Positions 13,806-24,594 of a stretch of 24,594 bases of DNA are shown one piece after another. Each line of letters starts with the position of its first letter. Position 1 is the first letter of the stretch. The DNA lies in the IMG/VR virus record IMGVR_UViG_2609459839_000005; one strand, written 5' to 3'. Made by a program: the position numbers and the translations under genes. This stretch comes from a virus. Lineage: Duplodnaviria > Heunggongvirae > Uroviricota > Caudoviricetes. Under the pieces are notes generated by a model. The model was not told the origin of the DNA. It did not search any database and saw nothing but the letters and a program-made list of their open reading frames with translations.

Positions 13806-14095
13806 TGGTGGATTTACGTAAAGCGGCGCGGGGGCAGATGTGCACCGTCAGAATTCCTGGCTACTGCAATCACAATCCCGAAACTTCTGTGCTGGCGCAT
13901 TACAGGCTGGCGGGGACGTGCGGAACAGCGATAAAGCCACACGATATGCAGGCAGCGATTGCCTGTAGCTCGTGCCACGATTTAATCGACGGGCGGGTAA
14001 AAACCAGCGATTACACCAAAGAAGAATTACGCCTGATGCATGCAGAAGGTGTTTTTCGCACACAAGAAATCTGGAGAAAGGAGGGATATTTATGA
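13805..14095 (+). CDS. YbcO-like small Cys/His-rich protein (DUF1364-type putative nuclease), 96 aa
   Basis: MVDLRKAARGQMCTVRIPGYCNHNPETSVLAHYRL…IACSSCHDLIDGR, with conserved Cys/His spacing as recalled for DLP12 YbcO. Start overlaps the previous stop. Confidence 0.55.
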   Translation: MVDLRKAARGQMCTVRIPGYCNHNPETSVLAHYRLAGTCGTAIKPHDMQAAIACSSCHDLIDGRVKTSDYTKEELRLMHAEGVFRTQEIWRKEGYL

Positions 14096-14634
14096 TTTAC
14101 CCAACGAATACAGGAAAAAGCGGAGAACACCTTCGTCTCACCACGCTGGAAAGTGTCTGGATTCAGGGAAAACTGCGCATGTGGGGGCGCTGGTCGTATA
14201 TTGGCGGCGGTAAGACGGGGAATATGTTCAACCAGTTGTTGGCCTCTAAAAAGCTGACAAAAACGGCAATTAACGAGGCGCTCCGGAGGATGAAAAAAGC
14301 AGGTCTGAACAAGTCTGAACTTGAGGCTTTTTTGCGGGATATGATTAACGGTAAGCAAAAGAGCTGGCTGGCGCATTGTACTGATGCAGAGGCGTTATGT
14401 ATTGATCGGGTGATTAGTGAAGTGCTGGCAGAACACCCAGGATTGATTTTTATCCTCCGGCAACGATATGAAGGAAGGGGGATGACTAAGCGAAAAATGG
14501 CTGAATTGCTAAATGATGCACACCCTGAGTGGTGTTTTAGCACATGCGAAAAGCGAATTGCTAATTGGTTGGCTGTTGCTGAGTATGCGCTGTACGTTCC
14601 CATGCGAGAATCATTCGCTCAAAAAATAGCTTGA
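14092..14634 (+). CDS. Putative late-gene antiterminator (Q-like), 180 aa
   Basis: ATG at 14092 overlaps the upstream stop (ATGA) and follows AGGAGG. Last gene before a non-coding stretch with a hairpin plus T-run, tRNAs and lysis genes. Assignment is by position; no motif confirmed. Confidence 0.45.
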   Translation: MIYPTNTGKSGEHLRLTTLESVWIQGKLRMWGRWSYIGGGKTGNMFNQLLASKKLTKTAINEALRRMKKAGLNKSELEAFLRDMINGKQKSWLAHCTDAEALCIDRVISEVLAEHPGLIFILRQRYEGRGMTKRKMAELLNDAHPEWCFSTCEKRIANWLAVAEYALYVPMRESFAQKIA

Positions 14635-14990
14635 TTTTTTACGCATAAACTGCTTCAATTCCGGTATGCTTCGCAAAGCTGTATCGCGAGGCGAATAGCA
14701 GTTTTGAACATCTAAAGACCCCGTTTAATGCGGGTTTTTTTATGCCCAAAAACGAAGTAGTGCGTTAAAATGTGATGGTCGGGAGTATACAGACTTTTAT
14801 ATAGCACTGCGTAAAAATCAATTTATCCGGGGTAAATGTCAATTTGCTTATTAAAAAAAACAAAAAGATAAATTTATAGCAATTGTGTTTCTTTGGGTTG
14901 AAAGTTTTAATGTCGTCAGTATTATCTGAAGCGGTTCTGAGGAGGGGGTTTCCATTGCTCGGCCACGATACTTCCGAGGAACCAATTAAC

Positions 14991-15066
<76 letters not shown>

Positions 15067-15069
15067 TAT

Positions 15070-15144
<75 letters not shown>

Positions 15145-15190
15145 GCAGAGGACGATGCTAGGCTGTTTCAGGCACTGACACATTATATGT

Positions 15191-15469
15191 GTGGGATGTT
15201 TTACCCTAACTCCTTACCACATCCTGTTCTGTAATGAATATTATTTATTACGGTACCAGTGTTGTTTTTTTACAATAGTGGAATGGTGCATTACTGGTGG
15301 AGATTTGTATTTCCTGGCAGGGCTGGTAATGTATCATTCCGGTGTTGTAAATAACACCCCAGAGACGTTCCTCAGTGCGAGGGTGGTTGAAAGAGTCGGT
15401 TTTGCGGGAAACCACAGCATCCATGCAGGACTGGATGTTTCGGGAGGCACCCGACGTCTCTGGTCATAA
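15191..15469 (+). CDS. Hypothetical ORF (92 aa), doubtful
   Basis: Track ORF only; no SD and odd composition. Sits where cargo genes lie in some lambdoid phages, but shows no similarity to Stx A subunits as I recall them. Confidence 0.2.
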   Translation: MGCFTLTPYHILFCNEYYLLRYQCCFFTIVEWCITGGDLYFLAGLVMYHSGVVNNTPETFLSARVVERVGFAGNHSIHAGLDVSGGTRRLWS

Positions 15470-15508
15470 TAAAATCATAGTGTTCTCTTCATGCCATTTT
15501 ATGCCATA

Positions 15509-15534
15509 GACCGCCACGCCAGGCGGTTTTTTTT
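15509..15534 (+). terminator. Rho-independent terminator
   Basis: CCGCC-acgcca-GGCGG followed by a T8 run. Confidence 0.55.
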
Positions 15535-15716
15535 ATTCAGAATTCAGTATTTATGCGGCTCGCTACGGCGGGCCTTTTTCATATCCGCGCCACGCCCGGC
15601 GCATATCAAAAACCACAGAGCCTTTCAGGGGTGAGCTTACGGGATGGTCAGTGTGACTTTCTCTGTGGGCTGGTCACCCCCGGGCGCAGGCCCACCCACT
15701 AAGAGGAAACGTCACT

Positions 15717-16143
15717 ATGTTTGGTATTTTCAAAAAGAAAACCCGCAAGGCCATTACTGAAGTGAAGAAAATGGAGAACCGCGACGCGGTGGAGGCGACC
15801 GTCTGGGGTGCATATTCCATTGCATACGCTGACGGCACCTGTGACGCGAAAGAAATCGCGGTACTGGAAAAAAACCATTGCAGCACTTCCTGTCTTTGCG
15901 CCGTTCTCCGGTGAGATTGCACAAATGAGTGCAAATATCCGCGCCCGTTATGAAGCGTCGCCGCGTTCTGCCAATGCCGAAGCTCTTCGTCAGCTGGCTG
16001 ATGTTGCCGGTACTGATGATGCAGTTAATGTGCTGTGCCTGTGTCTGGATATCGCTGACCAGGACGGTATCGGTCAGGAAGAAGAAGCGCAACTGAAGAA
16101 AATTGCGCAGGCGCTGCAGTTGCCGCTGGAGCAGTACCTGTGA
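15717..16143 (+). pseudogene. TerB-like protein gene interrupted by a +1 frameshift in an A7 tract
   Basis: Track ORFs 15717..15914 and 15808..16143 join into one TerB-like protein (…AYADGTCDAKEIAVLEK|TIAALPVF…DDAVNVLCLCLDIADQDGIGQEEEAQLKKIAQALQLP) if the A-run at 15868-15874 were 6 or 9 nt. GAGG upstream of the ATG. Confidence 0.5.
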
Positions 16144-16292
16144 AAAGTGCGCGCCTTGTGCTGGCTGTCATCCTGTTGTTTCTGGTAGTGGTGGTTGATT
16201 TCACCGGACGACTGATGTCGGTGCTGGCAGATGGTGTGCTGGTGGCGATGGCGCTGGTCGTGCTCCGGCCTTTACTGCGTAAATCTGAATAA
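16140..16292 (+). CDS. Small hydrophobic membrane peptide (about 50 aa), GTG start
   Basis: Hand translation VKSARLVLAVILLFLVVVVDFTGRLMSVLADGVLVAMALVVLRPLLRKSE. GTG overlaps the TerB-like stop (GTGA). No SD, so speculative. Confidence 0.3.
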   Translation: MKSARLVLAVILLFLVVVVDFTGRLMSVLADGVLVAMALVVLRPLLRKSE

Positions 16293-16302
16293 CATCACAC
16301 AA

Positions 16303-16340
16303 AAGGCATCTGCGGATGCCTTTGACGGGGTGTTTTTTAC
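16303..16340 (+). terminator. Hairpin plus T-run (terminator-like)
   Basis: GGCATC-tgcg-GATGCC followed by TTTgacggggtgTTTTTT. The interrupted T-run makes this weak. Confidence 0.3.
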
Positions 16341-16378
16341 GGGTCGCTGGTGGCCCTTTTTTATTTTCAGGAGGAAGT

Positions 16379-16771
16379 ATGTCTGAACCCTTATCCGGTT
16401 CCGGCACGGCTGCGGCGCTGGGTGGCGCGACGGTATTCGGGCTGTTTACCGGGATGGATTTCGGGATTGTGTTTGGCGCGTTCGCCGGGGCGTTATTTGT
16501 GGCAACGATGCCGCAGTCACTTTCAGTCTGGCGCGTGGTGGCACATTTTCTGGTGTCGTTTATTGTCGGCGTGCTGGGAGCGCGTGTGCTGTCAGCCTGG
16601 ATTGCATCAAAAACAGGGTATGACGGTACATCAGCAGATGCGCTTTGCGCGGTGCTGGTCTCGGTTGTGTCGGTGAAGATTCTCTCGTTCATCCACCAGC
16701 AGGATATTGCATCGCTGGTGTCCGGTGTGTTCTCCCGCCTGCGGGGTGGAGGAGGCGGCAATGTTAAGTAA
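16379..16771 (+). CDS. Holin-like membrane protein (about 130 aa, Gly/Ala-rich TM segments)
   Basis: ATG at 16379 after AGGAGG. Three predicted hydrophobic segments, directly upstream of a second membrane protein and the endolysin remnant. Confidence 0.5.
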   Translation: MSEPLSGSGTAAALGGATVFGLFTGMDFGIVFGAFAGALFVATMPQSLSVWRVVAHFLVSFIVGVLGARVLSAWIASKTGYDGTSADALCAVLVSVVSVKILSFIHQQDIASLVSGVFSRLRGGGGGNVK

Positions 16772-17036
16772 CCTTCCCGGATTGCTGAATGTGGTGTTAT
16801 GCACAGTTATCGTGCTGACGCTCTTTTTTTATCGTCGCCGTGATTCCAGACATAAACCGCTGGTGTCATGGCTGGCCTGGCTGCTGATGCTGCTGTATGC
16901 CTTTGCGCCCCTCAGTTATCTGTGTGGTCGCCCGTTAGCAACGGGCTGGCTGGAAGTGTTTTTTAACCTGCTGTTCTGCGTGCTGGTGATACGCGCACGC
17001 GGGAACGTCACAAAAATCTTTCCATTGTTGAGGTGA
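16761..17036 (+). CDS. Second small membrane protein of the lysis cassette (holin/antiholin-like, 91 aa)
   Basis: ATG at 16761 after GGAGG, overlapping the previous gene. Two or three TM segments and a basic stretch (YRRRDSRHK). Confidence 0.45.
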   Translation: MLSNLPGLLNVVLCTVIVLTLFFYRRRDSRHKPLVSWLAWLLMLLYAFAPLSYLCGRPLATGWLEVFFNLLFCVLVIRARGNVTKIFPLLR

Positions 17037-17038
17037 AT

Positions 17039-17254
17039 ATGTCGGGTAAATTCAGATTTAGTCGTCGCAGCGAAAAGAATCTGGAGGGCGTTAAACCACA
17101 GCTGGTTGCTGTCGTTCGCCGTGCGCTGGAGCTGACGGAGGTTGATTTCGGTATTACGGAAGGGCTGCGCACGAAAGAACGCCAGAAACAGCTGGTCGCG
17201 GAAGGGAAAAGCCAGACCATGAACAGCCGCCAGCTTTATAGCGTGGATAGATAA
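17039..17254 (+). pseudogene. Truncated endolysin (T5-type L-alanyl-D-glutamate peptidase, M15 family), N-terminal about 70 aa only
   Basis: MSGKFRFSRRSEKNLEGVKPQLVAVVRRALELTEVDFGITEGLRTKERQ… matches my recollection of the T5 Lys N-terminus. ORF stops at …TMNSRQLYSVDR, where the catalytic SxHxxGxAxD motif should be (His replaced by Gln). Confidence 0.6.
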
Positions 17255-17615
17255 CAATGCCGAGTCTTGAGGAATTATTCCTGCGCAGCAGTGCATCGTG
17301 CAGCAGATTTACCCGGACTACTATGTGAACATGGTTCAGCAACAGTTTGCCGGCTATTTTGCATCATTGGCAATTTCAAAGGTAGATGGAGCAGATAACC
17401 CCACCTATAACATCGATGTTGTGTTTTTTAATGGGACCAGTTACCGGACGCAGGTGCCGGTATGAATCACAGTTTTATGATAAAACTTTTACCTTGGTTT
17501 GGAGTGCTGTAGAGAGATATTTTAGGGGAGGCGAGTAATTTTCTAAGCTGGAGCATATTGACATATATTATTTCGGATTTGCAAAATACAGATTGTAACC
17601 ATGGAGGAGACAAGC

Positions 17616-18776
17616 ATGGAAAATTTTGCAAATAAGTTAAAAATACACACAGAGCATGTTGCAAAAATGGGGGTGTTTTGTACAACTGAAGAAACGACAA
17701 AACAAGCACTCATTATGCCATTACTAGATATTCTTGGTTTTACTCCGTATGATCCAAGAAAAGTCAAAGCTGAGTATAGTGCTGACTTCCCCGGGGTTAA
17801 GGCTAATGAACGGGTTGATTACGCTTTATTTTGTCATGATGTTCCTGTGATGTTCATTGAGGCGAAATCGTTTTCAGAACAAATTGATAATCACTGCCCA
17901 CAGCTATCAAGATATTTTAATTCAACACCGGAAGTTACTATATCAGCCATTACAAATGGTGTTGAATGGCGTTTTTTTACGGATTTGAAACAAAAAAACA
18001 TAATGGATTCAACGCCGTTTTTAAAATTAAGAATGGATTCTCTAACTCACTCCGATATTACACAATTATTTCGTTTTCGTTATGATAAATTCAAACCAGA
18101 GGCTTTACGGACACTGGCTGAAGAAAGTGTTTATTTGAATTCATTTACTAAAACAATCAGTTCTAGTCTTCGTGAAGTTGATCTGGAGTTTGTTCGATAT
18201 GTTGCTAGTCGTTCAAATATTGAGAGGCAACTTAATCAGAGATTTCTTGAGTTCGTGACTCCATTAGTTAAACAGGCCGTTGAGCGCGCTGTTAGCGCAA
18301 TGGTGGTTTCCGGGCTATCTACACAACCGGTAGAGCAAACTAAAGAAAATGATGCAACGGATACACAAGTTAATAACGCCATTGTTGATGAAGAAAACCC
18401 CAACATAATAACCACAGCCAAAGAATTGGAGCTATTTGAAAGGGTAAAACAAATCATACAAACAGAAGATAATATAGAATATAAAGATACTGAGTCATAT
18501 TTCGGTGTACTATTGAATGGTAAAACTAATAGATGGCTGTTAAGATTTTATGATAAAAAATCTTCATTTATAACTTTACCTATTTCGCTTAGTGAAGTTC
18601 AGTTGAATGAAATAAGACGAGCTCGACTTGATACGGATGGTAAAAGGATACATATAACTAATCCGGAAGATATACTTCGCATATCTGGTTTGATTCTGGA
18701 TTCATACGAGTATGTTAAAAATGATGATAATTTCCGCCGAGGGTCCAGAGTGAGCAGTTTAGAAGAGGTTGAATAA
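17616..18776 (+). CDS. 386-aa protein with N-terminal HsdR-N/Mrr-like PD-ExK nuclease motif and uncharacterised C-terminal domain
   Basis: N-terminus …TKQALIMPLLDILGF…KAEYSADFPGVKANERVDYALFCH-DVPVMFIEAKS… gives an E…D-x13-E-A-K arrangement. ATG at 17616 after GGAGGA. AT-rich (about 35% GC in a sampled stretch), own promoter candidate and a strong terminator. Confidence 0.68.
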   Translation: MENFANKLKIHTEHVAKMGVFCTTEETTKQALIMPLLDILGFTPYDPRKVKAEYSADFPGVKANERVDYALFCHDVPVMFIEAKSFSEQIDNHCPQLSRYFNSTPEVTISAITNGVEWRFFTDLKQKNIMDSTPFLKLRMDSLTHSDITQLFRFRYDKFKPEALRTLAEESVYLNSFTKTISSSLREVDLEFVRYVASRSNIERQLNQRFLEFVTPLVKQAVERAVSAMVVSGLSTQPVEQTKENDATDTQVNNAIVDEENPNIITTAKELELFERVKQIIQTEDNIEYKDTESYFGVLLNGKTNRWLLRFYDKKSSFITLPISLSEVQLNEIRRARLDTDGKRIHITNPEDILRISGLILDSYEYVKNDDNFRRGSRVSSLEEVE

Positions 18777-18778
18777 GT

Positions 18779-18806
18779 AAAAAACCCGCGAAAGCGGGTT
18801 TTTTAA
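18779..18806 (+). terminator. Rho-independent terminator
   Basis: AAAACCCGC-gaaa-GCGGGTTTTTT immediately after the stop of the 386-aa gene. Confidence 0.7.
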
Positions 18807-18816
18807 TGGAGTAAAT

Positions 18817-20043
18817 ATGTCAGAAATACCAATTACTATGACCAGTGCGGGTGCGCAGCCTACGCCACCCAATGATTTGCTCGCGAATCTTATCACTAGA
18901 GTTGCTGAAAAAGTACCTGGATATACAGCCAACCTTCCGGCGGGGCTTATTACAGACCTTGCCAGCACGGCTGTCGGGGCGCTGGCATTAATAGACCAGG
19001 CGCGGGTGGACCTTATTAACTCCGTAAGCCCATACGGCGCGAATATTCCGTTACTGATGCAACTCGGAAACATATATGGAGCACAGAAGGGATTAAGTAC
19101 AAATACGGCGGTATACGTGGTGTTTGAGGCGTTGCCGGGGTTTGGTATCCCTAAAGGATTTGTTGTCGGTGACGGCAACTACCAGTATGCGGTTTCCCGC
19201 GATACCGTGGTACCGGAAAACGGGCAGACTGAGCCAGTCTACTGTGTGGCCACAACGTCAGGCTCATGGGCTGTACCGGAAGGGACCGTGACGCAGGTCA
19301 TTACCTCAGTACCCAAAGACCAGCCTGTAAAATGCACCAACTTTACCGCAGGAATGCCCGGTCAGGAGGCGCAAACGTGGGCATCTTACCGCGCCGAAGT
19401 CATGGAGTCCGGCATGTTTGGTGTGCAGGGAACACCGGATTGCTTTAAAGCTATGCTCAAATCAGTAAGCGGTGTGCGAGAAAACCTGATTTCTTTCCGG
19501 CAGTCGTCGCTGGGGAAATGGGTTGCGGTTGTTGGTGGCGGTGATCCGTATGATGTGGCTTATGCGATTTACAAATCTGTACCGGATATTTCGAAACTGA
19601 CCAACGATGTAAGCAATCCATCCGGTGCGGCAGTGGAAAAACGCACGGTTTCAATAACCGTTTCGCCGGACGTTTATCAGGTGCCTTTCGTTATCCCGTC
19701 ATCACAAAACGTCATGGTGCTAATCACCTGGAACACGGTGTCTGATGATTATGTTGATCCGGCGGGTATTGCTATGGCTGTGCAGCAAAACGTTGCTGAT
19801 TACATCAATTCAATTGAAGTCGGACACCCGATAAATCTTCTGCGTATCCAGGATATTTTTACCAGTTCTGTCAGGTTGCTGGTTGATGCGACGTTGATCT
19901 CAACAATCAGTGTGAGCATTGGTATTAACGGTCATATTGTTCTTCCGGCGAAAGACACAAGCCTGGTTTATGGCGATACCTATTCCTATTTTTCAACGGT
20001 GGCATCACAGGTTCAGGTCAACAAGTATGCAATATCTGACTGA
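18817..20043 (+). CDS. Baseplate J/gp47-like protein, 408 aa
   Basis: First gene of a co-directional tail block; size and position fit a Mu/P2-type baseplate protein ahead of a DUF2313-like gene and fibre genes. Assignment from module context. Confidence 0.5.
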   Translation: MSEIPITMTSAGAQPTPPNDLLANLITRVAEKVPGYTANLPAGLITDLASTAVGALALIDQARVDLINSVSPYGANIPLLMQLGNIYGAQKGLSTNTAVYVVFEALPGFGIPKGFVVGDGNYQYAVSRDTVVPENGQTEPVYCVATTSGSWAVPEGTVTQVITSVPKDQPVKCTNFTAGMPGQEAQTWASYRAEVMESGMFGVQGTPDCFKAMLKSVSGVRENLISFRQSSLGKWVAVVGGGDPYDVAYAIYKSVPDISKLTNDVSNPSGAAVEKRTVSITVSPDVYQVPFVIPSSQNVMVLITWNTVSDDYVDPAGIAMAVQQNVADYINSIEVGHPINLLRIQDIFTSSVRLLVDATLISTISVSIGINGHIVLPAKDTSLVYGDTYSYFSTVASQVQVNKYAISD

Positions 20044-20653
20044 GAAAATTCTCCCTGCTTATCCATTTGCGCAGTACAGAGATGATCCGAATGTTGTTGC
20101 GTTCTTTGATGCATACAATGAAATTGCTCAGGAATACCTCGATTCACTCAACAATCTGGCATTGCCATGCTGGACATCGGAATCAATAACCGGGCAATTA
20201 CTGGACTGGATTGCACTCGGGATTTATGGCGTTGAAAGGCCTTTACTACAGGTTTCCGAGGAGGCTATTGCACGCGGCGCATACGATACCATTGAATACA
20301 ATACGATCCCGTATGCAGCAATGCGGAATTATGTTCCGGGGCAGGCATCGTATGTACCTGATGATTATTTCAAACGAATATTAACGTGGAATTTTTATAA
20401 GGCTGACGGTTCGCATTTCTGCATTGACTGGTTAAAGCGCCGTGTGGCGCGGTTCATTCATGGGAAAAACGGAATAGACCCGCCGTTGCAGCACACTTTT
20501 GATGTGAGCGTGACTGTATCGGACAGTGTTTTTTCTATTCAGATACCAGAATATGGTGATGGTATAGGCTATTTTCTGAAAGATGCCATTGACCAGAAAT
20601 ATGTAAAACTCCCTTTTATTTATTCCTATGCAACAACGGTGATTCAAAAATGA
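20027..20653 (+). CDS. Tail protein (Mu gp48 / P2 gpI / YmfQ-like), about 208 aa
   Basis: Internal ATG at 20027 (MQYLTEKILPAYPF…) chosen because the track start at 19919 overlaps the upstream gene by over 100 nt. Lies between baseplate and fibre genes. Confidence 0.45.
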   Translation: MQYLTEKILPAYPFAQYRDDPNVVAFFDAYNEIAQEYLDSLNNLALPCWTSESITGQLLDWIALGIYGVERPLLQVSEEAIARGAYDTIEYNTIPYAAMRNYVPGQASYVPDDYFKRILTWNFYKADGSHFCIDWLKRRVARFIHGKNGIDPPLQHTFDVSVTVSDSVFSIQIPEYGDGIGYFLKDAIDQKYVKLPFIYSYATTVIQK

Positions 20654-22200
20654 TTCTTGGATTCGGCAATAACGTTGTTTCAGCACTGGCTGGTGATATT
20701 ACGACGATTCAGACTGATATTCCGGTGATGCCGGGCACGGGAGCTAAATTTGCAAAATTGCTTTCTGCCGATTTTGAAAATAAATCGAACGGGCAACGCG
20801 TCTATGCAAAAATTACGCTTACCGATAATAAAGAGTCAGCGTTTGAGATTTGTCACCTGGTATCGGTAAGCGGTGATGTGCTGAAAGTCATTCGTGGGCA
20901 GGAAGGAACAACCGCGAAAGGTTGGTCCCTTAATGACGTTGTGGCTAACTTTGCCACACGTGGATCGGAAAACTATTTCGTACAGATAGCGCAGCTTCAG
21001 AGCGGTCATTATATTGCAGGTGTCGCTGGCGGCACTGCAAATGCACTGACGCTGGAGCTTCCCGCGACGTTTTTTGTTAATGGAGGTACAGATTGGACGC
21101 TACGAACTCCTATTATCGTTTTCCCCGTTCAGAACAATACCAACGCCGCAACGCTTCAATTGACACTGGGCGGAAAGGTTCTTGGTACGTTTCCACTTTA
21201 TAAGGGGAACAAGTCCGGGCTGGTAGCGAACGATATCATTAAAGGTATTCCCTTAATTTGCCTTCTTGATAGCGAGAAAAGCTATTTCAGCGTGATAAAC
21301 CCCGGCAATATCTATTCAGATTTTGATCTGCGATATGTAAAAAAATCTGGTGATTTGATGACCGGGGAGCTGAAAATCCGTGGTGTTAATGCACTGAGGA
21401 TTTTCAACGACGCTTTTGGTCTGATTTTTCGTCGTTCGGAAGAGTGCCTGCACCTTATTCCTACCAGTGAAGGTCAGGGCGAGAATGGCGATATTGGTCC
21501 ACTTCGACCGTTCACTATTAATCTGCGGACGGGTGAAATATCCATGTCGCATAAAGTGTCTGTTGGCGGTGGTTCTCAGGTCAATGGTGCGCTGGGTATC
21601 GGCGTTCAGAACGCGCTGGGCGGAAACTCAATTGCTTTCGGGGATAACGATACAGATATAAAACAAAACGGCGACGGCATTCTGGATGTTTATGCGAATG
21701 GACAGCATGTATTTCGTTTCCAGAATGGTGTGGCGATAGCGTTAAAAAATATTCAGGCCGGAAATGCTAAAAAATTCACGTTATCCAGCGCCAACAACTC
21801 AACGAAAAACGCAACGTTTAATTTATGGGGCAATTCGTCCCGTCCTGTAGTTGCAGAGCTTGGTGATGATTCCGGCTGGCATTTTTACAGCCAGAGAAAT
21901 ACGGATAACAGTATAACGTTCGCTGTAAACGGACAGATGGTCCCGTCAAATTATGGAAATTTCGATGCCCGTTACCAGACCAAATCAGGGGGCGTGCAGA
22001 ATTTTCAGTACACCAGTGAGGTGTTTTACAACCCTGGTGGGAATGAGCGCAGCTGGACGTTTCGGGCACCTTCTGGTTGTGTTTTGTCAGGCATTAATGT
22101 TCAGGACACTGGCAGTAACTCTGCAGATAATATCGGTGGCGTGTATTACAAACAGGCTCAGATTTATATCAATGGTGCATGGCGATCCGTATCAGGTTAA
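20650..22200 (+). CDS. Tail fibre protein, 516 aa
   Basis: Start overlaps the previous stop (ATGA). Gly/Asn/Ser-rich beta-type composition, immediately followed by a tail-fibre assembly gene. Confidence 0.55.
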   Translation: MILGFGNNVVSALAGDITTIQTDIPVMPGTGAKFAKLLSADFENKSNGQRVYAKITLTDNKESAFEICHLVSVSGDVLKVIRGQEGTTAKGWSLNDVVANFATRGSENYFVQIAQLQSGHYIAGVAGGTANALTLELPATFFVNGGTDWTLRTPIIVFPVQNNTNAATLQLTLGGKVLGTFPLYKGNKSGLVANDIIKGIPLICLLDSEKSYFSVINPGNIYSDFDLRYVKKSGDLMTGELKIRGVNALRIFNDAFGLIFRRSEECLHLIPTSEGQGENGDIGPLRPFTINLRTGEISMSHKVSVGGGSQVNGALGIGVQNALGGNSIAFGDNDTDIKQNGDGILDVYANGQHVFRFQNGVAIALKNIQAGNAKKFTLSSANNSTKNATFNLWGNSSRPVVAELGDDSGWHFYSQRNTDNSITFAVNGQMVPSNYGNFDARYQTKSGGVQNFQYTSEVFYNPGGNERSWTFRAPSGCVLSGINVQDTGSNSADNIGGVYYKQAQIYINGAWRSVSG

Positions 22201-22213
22201 TTAAGGAGAAATA

Positions 22214-22744
22214 ATGGAACTCGTAAACGTTACGCGTTACTACCCTGAAGATATGCCTTATGGTGAAGGCATTCAGTATTTCCGTAGTGAAGACGGGCAG
22301 GATTTTTATGAATCACTGGATAAGTTCACGAAGAAATACAAGCTGTGCACACATCCTGAAACCGGCGTTATTTATTCCATGGCGGAAGATGTATCCCGCC
22401 TTTATCCCGTTGGTTTTACCATTGTGGAAGTGGATGAACTACCGGAAGGATTTTGTATTGAAGCCCGCTGGTATTATAAAGACGGTGAAGTACTGCCGGT
22501 CCCTGTTGACTACCGGCAGCAGGCCGAGTCGGAGCGTGCACGTCTTACTGCGATTGCCGAACGGGAAATATCCGATAAGAAGACGGATTTACTTCTGGGA
22601 ATCATCAGTGATGAAGAAAAAGAAAAGTTGACAGCCTGGCGCATTTACGCGAAATCGCTGCAGGCGATGGATTTCAGCACCATCGCTGATAAAACCTCAT
22701 ATAACGCCATTGAATGGCCCGTCTCTCCGGAAGCCTCTTCCTGA
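22214..22744 (+). CDS. Tail fibre assembly protein (Tfa), 176 aa
   Basis: AAGGAG upstream. C-terminal …LLLGIISDEEKEKLTAWRIYAKSLQAMD… matches the conserved Tfa chaperone motif. Confidence 0.75.
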   Translation: MELVNVTRYYPEDMPYGEGIQYFRSEDGQDFYESLDKFTKKYKLCTHPETGVIYSMAEDVSRLYPVGFTIVEVDELPEGFCIEARWYYKDGEVLPVPVDYRQQAESERARLTAIAEREISDKKTDLLLGIISDEEKEKLTAWRIYAKSLQAMDFSTIADKTSYNAIEWPVSPEASS

Positions 22745-22767
22745 TTTAATTTATCGCGAGAAAAACT

Positions 22768-24594
22768 ATGTCTGTAGTGATATCAGGTGCGCTGATAGAT
22801 GGCGCAGGCATCCCCATGTCCGGATGCCACATAATTCTGAAATCCCGGGTAAACACCTCAGAGGTGGTGATGCGCACAGTTGCCGACGTGGTGACAGGAA
22901 ACTGTGGCGAGTACTGTTTTAAGGCGCAGACCGGAAAATATTGCGTATATCTGAAACAGGACTGGCGCGACGAGTACTATGTTGGCGACATTGCTGTATA
23001 CGACGACTCAAAGCCCGGCACGCTGAACGACTTTCTGACTGCCCTTGATGAAGGCGATTTAAAGCCGGATGTAGTGAAACGATTTGAGGAAATGGTGGTG
23101 CAGGCACAGCAGAGTGCTGAAATCGCAGCATCATGTGCAGAACAGGCAGGGCAAATATTAAATAACATCCAGGAGGTTGCAGGGCAGCTTTCCACAGTAC
23201 GCTTCGAAAATTTTAACGATATTAGCAGGCGGTGTACGACAGCCATGCTGAAGCTGGAACAACCCGAGGTTGTTAATACATCAATATCTTTAAAAATAAA
23301 AGAAAATATCGATTTTAATTATGTCGGTGCAGTTAACGGATATTGCGATATTCCTGAACCTGAAAAGTATAAAGTCGAAATGTATGCTTATACAACTGGA
23401 GAGTATTTTAACGGCGACGCTAATTTGAATAGTGACGGAACTTTCTATTTCAGACGTTGCTGGACGGGAGCAAAACAGTTTCGTCTTATTCGGATTGAGG
23501 ATAATGCGTGGATCACAACGCTGGAATTTCCGCTGCTCATTCGTAGTTACTGGATGCCAGAGGACGCAGATCCTGACGTGATCAGGGTGATGAAAGACCG
23601 ATGTTACACGTATGACCAGGCGCTGGCAGCACTGGCGTTGATGGTTCAGCGACATGAAGCTGTGGAAAGATACGTTTCAGGTTTGTGTGCACTTGTTGAT
23701 GAAAACGGCGGGGTGAAATTTTTTGTTAACAGGCTGTCGGCCATGTCTTCGCGCGCCTATTATCGACTGGGCAATGCGGCATGGGTTTACTATGCCCTTG
23801 CGTTCTATCTGGAGAAATACCCGGACGGAGCACAGGTAAATATTGTTCGGGCAAAGTTGTTATCTGGCATCAGCTGGCTGGATTCTTTCCTGGTAACCGC
23901 CCCTGGTGATTTACGTGAAGGCCTGTATAAAGGCGGCCTTGGTCGTTATGTAAATGGCGAATTTGACGCCAGTTTCGTTGCCGAATGGTGCGCACTGGAG
24001 CATAACGTTGATATCTGGTTTTTGTTTGAACTGATGGGGAGACTGGAATTTGACGGCTTCATTCAACGCGCCGATGCGCTGGCAAAAAGTATCATCAGGG
24101 GGTTCTGGATGGAAGAGGAAGGCCGGTTCCGGCAGGGAGTACACCCAACCAGTTATGATAACGCGGCGGCTCTCGATCAATCGTCATGGGGCGGGCTGTT
24201 TGTAGCGAATATAGACATGGCTAAAGCTGTACGTTGTCGTAAGTATATGGGGCGTTTCTTTTTTGGCACCCGCGAAGCCACGGGTTACACACCTTACCAC
24301 CCCGATTATGGATACAGTGGTCACAGTCGAGGTGTATGGGTGGAAGGGACCGCAGGAGTGGCACTTTTTGAGAGAAAGCTTGGAAACGAGGTTACAGCAG
24401 TGAATCTCATTGCAGCAATGGCACCGCTTCGTGATGAATACGGCTATCGTGATTCATGCGATGACCCGGCATATGATGTGCTCCCACCCTGGCCATCAAC
24501 AACAAACACGGCGTGGGTAATCCTGACAGTAAAACCTGATAATTTTTGGCTGGTAGATTCACCGATCATGGACGTTGGCATGATTCGATACTGA
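22768..24594 (+). CDS. Side-tail-fibre-like protein with enzyme-like C-terminal domain (putative polysaccharide depolymerase), 608 aa
   Basis: N-terminal about 120 aa resembles the conserved lambdoid Stf N-terminus (MSVVISGALIDGAGIPMSGCHIILKSR…YDDSKPGTLNDFL…). The rest is helix- and aromatic-rich (…AWVYYALAFY…LDQSSWGG…WVEGTAGVAL…), suggesting an (alpha/alpha)-toroid glycosidase-like fold. Stop is at the window end. Confidence 0.55.
   Translation: MSVVISGALIDGAGIPMSGCHIILKSRVNTSEVVMRTVADVVTGNCGEYCFKAQTGKYCVYLKQDWRDEYYVGDIAVYDDSKPGTLNDFLTALDEGDLKPDVVKRFEEMVVQAQQSAEIAASCAEQAGQILNNIQEVAGQLSTVRFENFNDISRRCTTAMLKLEQPEVVNTSISLKIKENIDFNYVGAVNGYCDIPEPEKYKVEMYAYTTGEYFNGDANLNSDGTFYFRRCWTGAKQFRLIRIEDNAWITTLEFPLLIRSYWMPEDADPDVIRVMKDRCYTYDQALAALALMVQRHEAVERYVSGLCALVDENGGVKFFVNRLSAMSSRAYYRLGNAAWVYYALAFYLEKYPDGAQVNIVRAKLLSGISWLDSFLVTAPGDLREGLYKGGLGRYVNGEFDASFVAEWCALEHNVDIWFLFELMGRLEFDGFIQRADALAKSIIRGFWMEEEGRFRQGVHPTSYDNAAALDQSSWGGLFVANIDMAKAVRCRKYMGRFFFGTREATGYTPYHPDYGYSGHSRGVWVEGTAGVALFERKLGNEVTAVNLIAAMAPLRDEYGYRDSCDDPAYDVLPPWPSTTNTAWVILTVKPDNFWLVDSPIMDVGMIRY

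Follow-up and report, generated by a model that had tools for sequence, protein, structure and literature searches.

A seven-adenine run splits the TerB-family gene tciA of a lambdoid prophage: a very probable frameshift pseudogene

A TerB-like gene in a 24,594-nucleotide stretch of viral DNA (IMGVR_UViG_2609459839_000005; the whole stretch is referred to here as the window) is distributed over two overlapping reading frames, and the frame changes within a run of adenines. This layout raises the question of whether the locus is a decayed gene, a gene whose product is made in a regulated fashion by slippage or recoding, a pair of separate genes, or the outcome of an error in the sequence.

The reading frames at the A7 run and the protein encoded by the repaired gene

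Direct reading of the plus strand and a regular-expression check agree on exactly seven A residues at 15868-15874 (Table 1), as had been stated in the initial annotation of this DNA. The run lies in the context GGTACTGG, then AAAAAAA, then CCATTGC; its immediate 5' flank is GCGGTACTGG and its 3' flank is CCATTGCAGC. In frame 0 the site is read as CTG GAA AAA AAC CAT, and ORF1 consequently comprises 52 native TciA residues followed by 13 out-of-frame residues (NHCSTSCLCAVLR). Removal of one A gives CTG GAA AAA ACC ATT and a continuous 141-aa ORF; a run of nine A residues likewise joins the frames of ORF1 and ORF2, with one added lysine residue. The expectation that the two ORFs would fuse at either A6 or A9 is thus borne out. 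The 72-aa ORF begins with an ATG codon at 15926 that is positioned 11 nt past the stop codon of ORF1 and is preceded by GGTGAG; it was called in the allele copies L019-L028. The window as a whole contains four runs of at least seven A and ten runs of at least seven T residues, and the A7 run as such is therefore not unusual. The non-random point is its position, namely exactly at the frame change of a conserved ORF.

Table 1. Coordinates of the features in and around the split tciA gene (window numbering).
Feature	Position	Strand	Remarks
Q-like antiterminator gene (DUF1133), head of the late region	14092..14634	+	Pfam DUF1133 355.8 bits, Phage_antitermQ 26.2 bits
tRNA-Thr(TGT) and tRNA-Gly(TCC), between the Q-like gene and tciA	14991..15144	+	
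tciA, frameshifted pseudogene (TerB family; ortholog of P1 tciA)	15717..16143	+	427 nt, 1-nt insertion; intact gene 426 nt
ORF1	15717..15914	+	65 aa, ATG start, TGA stop
ORF2 (mechanical)	15808..16143	+	111 aa, GTG start, +1 frame relative to ORF1
A7 homopolymer, the frameshift site	15868..15874	+	intact alleles: A6 (GAA AAA ACC) or interrupted (GAG AAA ACC)
Remnant C-terminal frame, TciA residues 70-141	15926..16143	+	72-aa ORF of gene callers
CTGTGC/CTGTGT hexamer (Leu-Cys repeat of TciA)	16033..16044	+	copy number varies among frameshifted alleles
tciB-like gene (DUF3927)	16140..16292	+	50 aa; Pfam DUF3927 54.2 bits; phrog_1470 'TciB-like' 82.3 bits
Holin gene, Phage_holin_8	16379-16771	+	downstream of tciA-tciB
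Holin gene, Phage_holin_3_7	16761-17036	+	downstream of tciA-tciB
M15 endolysin gene, truncated	17039..17254	+	match to intact copies ends at 17232

Against the Pfam TerB profile (PF05099), the repaired 141-aa protein reaches 32.4 bits (E = 1.3e-7), above the gathering cut-off of 24.4 bits, and hence belongs to the TerB family by the Pfam gathering standard, in keeping with the initial description of the gene as TerB-like. The split fragments all fall under this cut-off (ORF1, 20.2 bits; ORF2, 13.8 bits; 72-aa ORF, 14.8 bits). In a tblastn comparison, the repaired protein shares 85.8% amino acid identity with TciA of phage P1 over its full length (residues 1-141), and the repaired gene has GAA AAA ACC at the site in question, as in P1; the window tciA differs in being split by a 1-nt insertion. 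The family phrog_632 ('tellurite resistance', moron category) matches the repaired protein with 216.6 bits over positions 1-141 of 143. The repaired protein is the ortholog of P1 TciA. The tciA gene resembles terB, and the tciABC region varies among P1-like phage-plasmids (PMC9603915); according to a note in the P1 record, TciA is about 41% identical to a putative TerB, and the function of P1 tciA has been deduced from homology alone (P1 record note; PMC9603915). A literature search on tciA/tciB returned no experimental study of phage tciA, its results being dominated by the Trypanosoma cruzi genotypes TcIa/TcIb. With the TerB proteins of ter operons (tellurite resistance/phage inhibition/colicin resistance; PF05099), the repaired protein shares a Pfam score over the threshold; its predicted fold is all-alpha, but its similarity to solved structures is weak, and, unlike the ter-operon genes, the window gene stands alone in a phage, without terZACDEF partners.

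For the repaired protein, AlphaFold predicts a bundle of six helices (pLDDT 87; pTM 0.82), an all-alpha fold that contains two acidic D-G...E loops. When the model was compared with the PDB by Foldseek, no structure was found at E <= 0.001; the top match, the uncharacterized Porphyromonas gingivalis protein 2h5n, which we presume to be a TerB-family member, was marginal (TM 0.53-0.56, E = 0.01). When the repaired protein was searched against the PDB by sequence and by profile, no TerB structure was recovered, and NCBIfam gave a sub-threshold DjlA match only. Region 60-111 of the Pfam TerB profile aligns to both halves of the protein (residues 11-52 and residues 89-139), a pattern that suggests an internal duplication in TciA.

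Orthologs of tciA and the origin of the frameshift

Among complete E. coli genomes, 216 records match a 651-nt region around the gene. In an alignment of the window with fourteen prophage copies from E. coli, each of the nine copies with A6 or GAG AAA ACC encodes 141 aa, and each of the five A7 copies is split. The gene is intact and encodes 141 aa in P1, in phage LMessi and in phage vB_Apl-pPE4, and a search of 5.8 billion proteins recovered 233 homolog clusters across the Enterobacterales, almost all of which are 140-142 aa long and nearly all of which carry a precomputed PF05099 match. RefSeq lists a normal 426-nt coding sequence in nine of nine A6-type genomes inspected. The repaired translation of the window gene is identical to WP_000466941.1 of E. 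coli B7A, the genes being 98% identical at the DNA level. The intact lambdoid copies (those of B7A, LMessi and vB_Apl-pPE4) resemble the window gene in being located upstream of the same holin-holin-M15 endolysin cassette, and they differ from it by having A6 or GAG AAA ACC and the full 141 aa. Either GAA AAA ACC or GAG AAA ACC is found in the orthologs, and the A-run is hence not conserved among them. A comparison of orthologs that might have uncovered two separate genes with the same boundaries thus uncovered a single gene of about 141 aa instead.

Nei-Gojobori counts for the repaired window allele versus P1, LMessi, ETEC4085 and PSJ-22 gave pN/pS values in the fused frame of 0.06-0.16 for residues 1-51 and of 0.08-0.15 for residues 52-141. 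Since pN/pS is low on both sides of the break, both tciA halves are under purifying selection in one shared frame. The single gene is the ancestral and normal state.

In our view, the locus has, with high probability, an ordinary explanation: a heritable 1-bp insertion (A6 to A7) has made tciA a frameshift pseudogene in a decaying lambdoid prophage. Replication slippage in the short homopolymer would have converted A6 into A7, and with the extra A, translation would enter a frame with a stop 13 codons further on. Of the six helices, the 65-aa fragment would keep the first and part of the second, together with the first ADG loop, and would lack helices 3-6; we infer that TciA is inactivated. 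The remaining 72 codons would still be open only because the allele is young. Re-initiation at the ATG at 15926 may give a 72-aa piece, which is unlikely to function as TciA, and might preserve the coupling to tciB; if re-initiation did not occur, the expression of tciB would probably be lowered too. The A7 allele would have spread vertically in lineages of enterotoxigenic E. coli (ETEC), and short-patch recombination would also have carried it from one co-resident lambdoid prophage to another, or it would have arisen more than once, or both.

Alternative readings of the split gene and the spread of the A7 allele

A different account, to which we assign a low probability, makes the A-run a low-frequency switch at the heritable or the expression level, either through recurrent A6/A7 slippage that toggles tciA and with it the coupled tciB in ETEC lineages, or through +1 ribosomal or polymerase slippage that provides a trickle of full-length protein. 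If this were true, the wide spread of the 'broken' allele would reflect selection and not decay. In its genetic version, which we hold to be very unlikely, the run would be a contingency tract through which tciA is reversibly switched on (A6) and off (A7) by slipped-strand mispairing. Consistent with such an arrangement, both A6 and A7 are present in the population, and allele P0049 lacks 3 nt in frame at this position, which implies that the site is mutable. Moreover, at least three backgrounds, as defined by haplotype or flank, carry A7. The first is the window type with the 5' haplotype CTAACGTAT; the second, represented by 214-4 and PFZY01, has window-type flanks and a B7A-type patch at gene positions 35-99 (window 15751-15815), where eight synonymous SNPs are of the B7A type and the rest of the region is of the window type; the third, UGCC01 (L026), is B7A-type (A6-like) on both sides of the run and lies behind a different antiterminator region. 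These backgrounds, including that of UGCC01, are compatible with recurrent A6-to-A7 events, and the wide spread of A7 on several backgrounds would also be expected from a slow on/off switch or from selection for loss of the gene.

Nevertheless, active short-patch recombination, as seen in the mosaic of strain 214-4, explains the several backgrounds equally well. A comparison of flanking SNPs showed no difference between the two haplotype families over about 330 nt around the run, so that a short conversion patch and an independent A6-to-A7 slip look alike. The mosaicism points to gene conversion between co-resident lambdoid prophages, to repeated mutation from A6 to A7, or to both; the multiple A7 backgrounds are accordingly a matter of ordinary mutation and recombination and not evidence for a contingency tract. 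Several observations speak against a reversible switch. The nine complete genomes closest to the window over 15145-15904 (98.9-99.9% identity) all carry A7, with no A6 copy on the window background among them, and the next relatives over this interval (at most 98.2%) are intact and have GAG AAA ACC. All five genomes of the O169:H41/L7 group, two of them labeled O169:H41 and the others having the same allele, carry A7. Among about 100 records, run lengths of 6 and 7 were the only ones seen; no A5 or A8, for instance, was present. In many orthologs a synonymous GAG codon breaks the run, which argues that there is no selection to keep the tract. A 7-nt A-run in mismatch-repair-proficient E. coli is also far shorter than the known contingency tracts. 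The phase-variable slippage considered in the initial annotation is therefore disfavored, as A6 and A7 do not mix within a lineage and the run is not conserved.

Programmed recoding, which would make the split a regulatory design, is in our judgment hardly credible. In this reading the A7 allele would give rise to full-length TciA, either because ribosomes shift by +1 on AAA-A or because the RNA polymerase slips and produces mRNA with A6 or A9. Such recoding has the appeal that a +1 shift of tRNA-Lys from AAA at 15870-15872 to AAA at 15871-15873 would allow perfect re-pairing and would give the exact wild-type protein, and A/T runs are known to be bypassed at a low, non-programmed level (PMC6260861; PMC5009743). 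A -1 shift at the site leads into the wrong frame. The two-ORF layout, however, is limited to one young allele group; the divergent orthologs are all single ORFs, and their synonymous GAA/GAG variation at the site lacks the conservation of a programmed frameshift site. Features that might stimulate a shift were likewise not found. Beyond the shift site, frame 0 continues with AAC, an ordinary codon that is neither a stop nor rare; inspection of GCGGTACTGG upstream of the site revealed no Shine-Dalgarno-like core; and the 80 nt downstream of the run fold no better than shuffled sequences (z = 0.13). In an Rfam scan of 14600-16500 the two tRNAs alone scored above threshold, with no RNA family or recoding element at the A7 site.

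As to slippage during transcription, A7 falls short of the published requirement of the polymerase of E. coli, 'at least 7 thymidine and even more adenine residues' (PMC6260861); selection against A/T runs is evident from about 9 nt in many bacteria (PMC1088944). With the A9 run of Thermus dnaX, the T9 run of Shigella mxiE, IS elements (PMC1088944) and +1 sites of the prfB type, the window locus shares overlapping ORFs at a homopolymer, where one shift restores the protein. It differs from them in that its run is 7 nt long, its split is not conserved, and a Shine-Dalgarno element, a stop or rare codon and an RNA structure are lacking. Hence, the option of programmed frameshifting raised in the initial annotation is unsupported: the split is not conserved, no stimulators were detected and the orthologs consist of one ORF. 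A trace of full-length TciA through non-programmed bypass on A7 is conceivable.

It is almost certainly not the case that the 65-aa and 72-aa halves represent two genuine genes, each with one D-G...E motif, whose products act as separate or associating half-TerB proteins. The match of the TerB profile region to both halves, with the internal duplication that it suggests, would fit this idea, as would the GGTGAG-preceded ATG shortly behind the stop of ORF1 and the existence of a PHROGs family of such C-terminal pieces, phrog_9865 ('unknown function', 74 positions), which matches TciA residues 68-141 only (168.8 bits). The latter family seems to be a database artifact built from split-tciA fragments. 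Two separate genes are contradicted by the divergent orthologs, which are never split; by the position of the break inside helix 44-55 of the AlphaFold model and not at a domain boundary; by the 13 out-of-frame residues with which ORF1 ends; by the absence of residues 53-69 from both products; and by the changes that the downstream piece is gathering, namely Y78H at a conserved site and helix-disrupting Leu-Cys insertions.

Y78 is nearly invariant in the intact TciA family, and the Y78H substitution is found in the downstream remnant of the O169:H41/L7 ETEC lineage (window 15948 region, TciA codon 78; 141 contigs). The Leu-Cys insertions stem from expansions of a hexamer: the CTGTGC unit is present once in the window and two to four times in several other A7 alleles (L005, L006, L021-L024 and L027 were sampled), and an extra Leu-Cys pair was seen in only one rare intact allele (P0046). 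The expansions place Leu-Cys pairs into an invariant LCLC helix. Tandem Repeats Finder did not report the hexamer in the window, where there are only two units. Either the hexamer is a small repeat prone to slippage, or its variation reflects a loosening of constraint once the frame had been broken; taken together with Y78H, the Leu-Cys expansions are possible signs of relaxed constraint in the A7 alleles. The downstream frame is open in every A7 allele seen, and a C-terminal fragment may be made from the restart ATG at 15926. Annotations should list the pair of small ORFs as a single frameshifted pseudogene of tciA instead of two genes.

The A7 allele is by no means confined to the window. 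Searches with a 67-mer and a 66-mer centered on the run recovered the identical A7 67-mer in nine complete E. coli genomes (E275a, 214-4, B4103-1, MB06101, L7_E1373, F9792, F8111-1SC3, F6326-C1 and 2014EL-1345-2); the search with the A6 version had 102 matching records, and the non-A7 matches listed all span 66 nt (A6 or equivalent length). The exact 65-aa product of ORF1 is encoded on 452 contigs (NCBI, ENA, MGnify and Logan; 803 blocks in the position index), the 72-aa remnant product on 248 contigs and its Y78H variant on 141. The best local identity is that of a draft contig (LGMR01000013.1; GCA_001912105.1), which matches the window at 100% over the 6.2 kb around tciA. In five of five A7 genomes inspected, RefSeq describes the gene as a pseudogene ('tellurite resistance TerB family protein, frameshifted'). 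Thus, A7 is a real and heritable allele that is common in diarrhoeagenic E. coli, the locus is a frameshifted pseudogene in the sense of NCBI PGAP, and the tciA frameshift is already flagged as such in public annotation.

Although homopolymers are a classic error site on some platforms, it can be all but dismissed that the true run is A6 and that the extra A is a sequencing or assembly miscall, since the nine complete genomes come from different laboratories, neighboring entries of the accession series CP0242xx and CP0358xx include A6 as well as A7 strains, four sources contributed contigs with the truncated products, and haplotype and flank co-segregate with A7. Among the options offered by the initial annotation, the pseudogene is thus the one that agrees with the intact orthologs, with the reality and wide distribution of the allele and with the RefSeq flags.

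Split copies have already seeded database families, as judged from the hundreds of contigs that encode the 65-aa and 72-aa products and from phrog_9865, apparently a C-terminal fragment. The A7 allele is a possible lineage marker for certain ETEC prophages, and the comparison of A7 with A6 lysogens would offer a natural knockout for the roles of TciA and TciB, which are known so far by TerB homology alone.

The tciA-tciB gene pair in a defective lambdoid prophage

Because the GTG start codon of tciB overlaps the stop codon of tciA (GTGA), tciB is probably translationally coupled to tciA. The order tciA-tciB is also found in P1 and in phage LMessi, and as in P1 the gene that directly follows tciA encodes a small tciB-like membrane protein (DUF3927, phrog_1470) and phage tRNA genes adjoin. 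Unlike in the phage-plasmid P1, the window tciA is part of a lambdoid late operon that extends from the Q-like gene and the tRNAs to the holins, and tciC is absent: the 86 nt between the end of tciB (16292) and the start of the first holin gene (16379) are too short for the 35-codon tciC of P1. The locus is therefore a two-gene tciAB variant, as are other lambdoid copies, and not a tciABC cassette of the P1 type. We regard tciA as a TerB-family accessory ('moron') gene that is located, together with tciB, between the Q-like antiterminator/tRNA genes and the lysis cassette.

The M15 endolysin gene is broken after about 64 codons (breakpoint 17232). On its 3' side follow an ORF with an HSDR_N domain and then Baseplate_J, tail and tail-fiber genes (ORFs 17601-24594); no terminase, portal or capsid genes are present between the truncated endolysin gene and the tail/baseplate genes of the window. 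Because the endolysin gene is truncated and the head genes are missing downstream, the element is a defective lambdoid prophage, a remnant of deletion or recombination. No complete RefSeq E. coli genome is colinear with the whole window. The best complete genome, that of strain 214-4, covers 96% of it in five pieces at 99.1% identity, and strain E275a, which is 100% identical to the window over 15650-16300, yet has only mosaic similarity to the window as a whole.

The spacer between tRNA-Gly and tciA (15145-15716) comprises about 570 nt of non-coding DNA. It contains terminator-like hairpins at 15508-15537 and 15557-15584, a long hairpin at approximately 15264-15356 with sub-threshold, miRNA-like Rfam matches, and a weak Rfam match to STnc100 at 15334-15506.

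Further upstream, between the replication genes and the hokD-like/Q-like region, the segment 10299-11934 contains a convergent, overlapping pair of ORFs of 190 aa (plus strand) and 365 aa (minus strand). This segment is 99.9% identical to E. coli E275a, whose annotation lists a 573-nt gene for a 'sce7726 family protein' and a 1098-nt gene for a 'beta family protein' at the matching position. The pair may represent accessory or defense cargo of the prophage.
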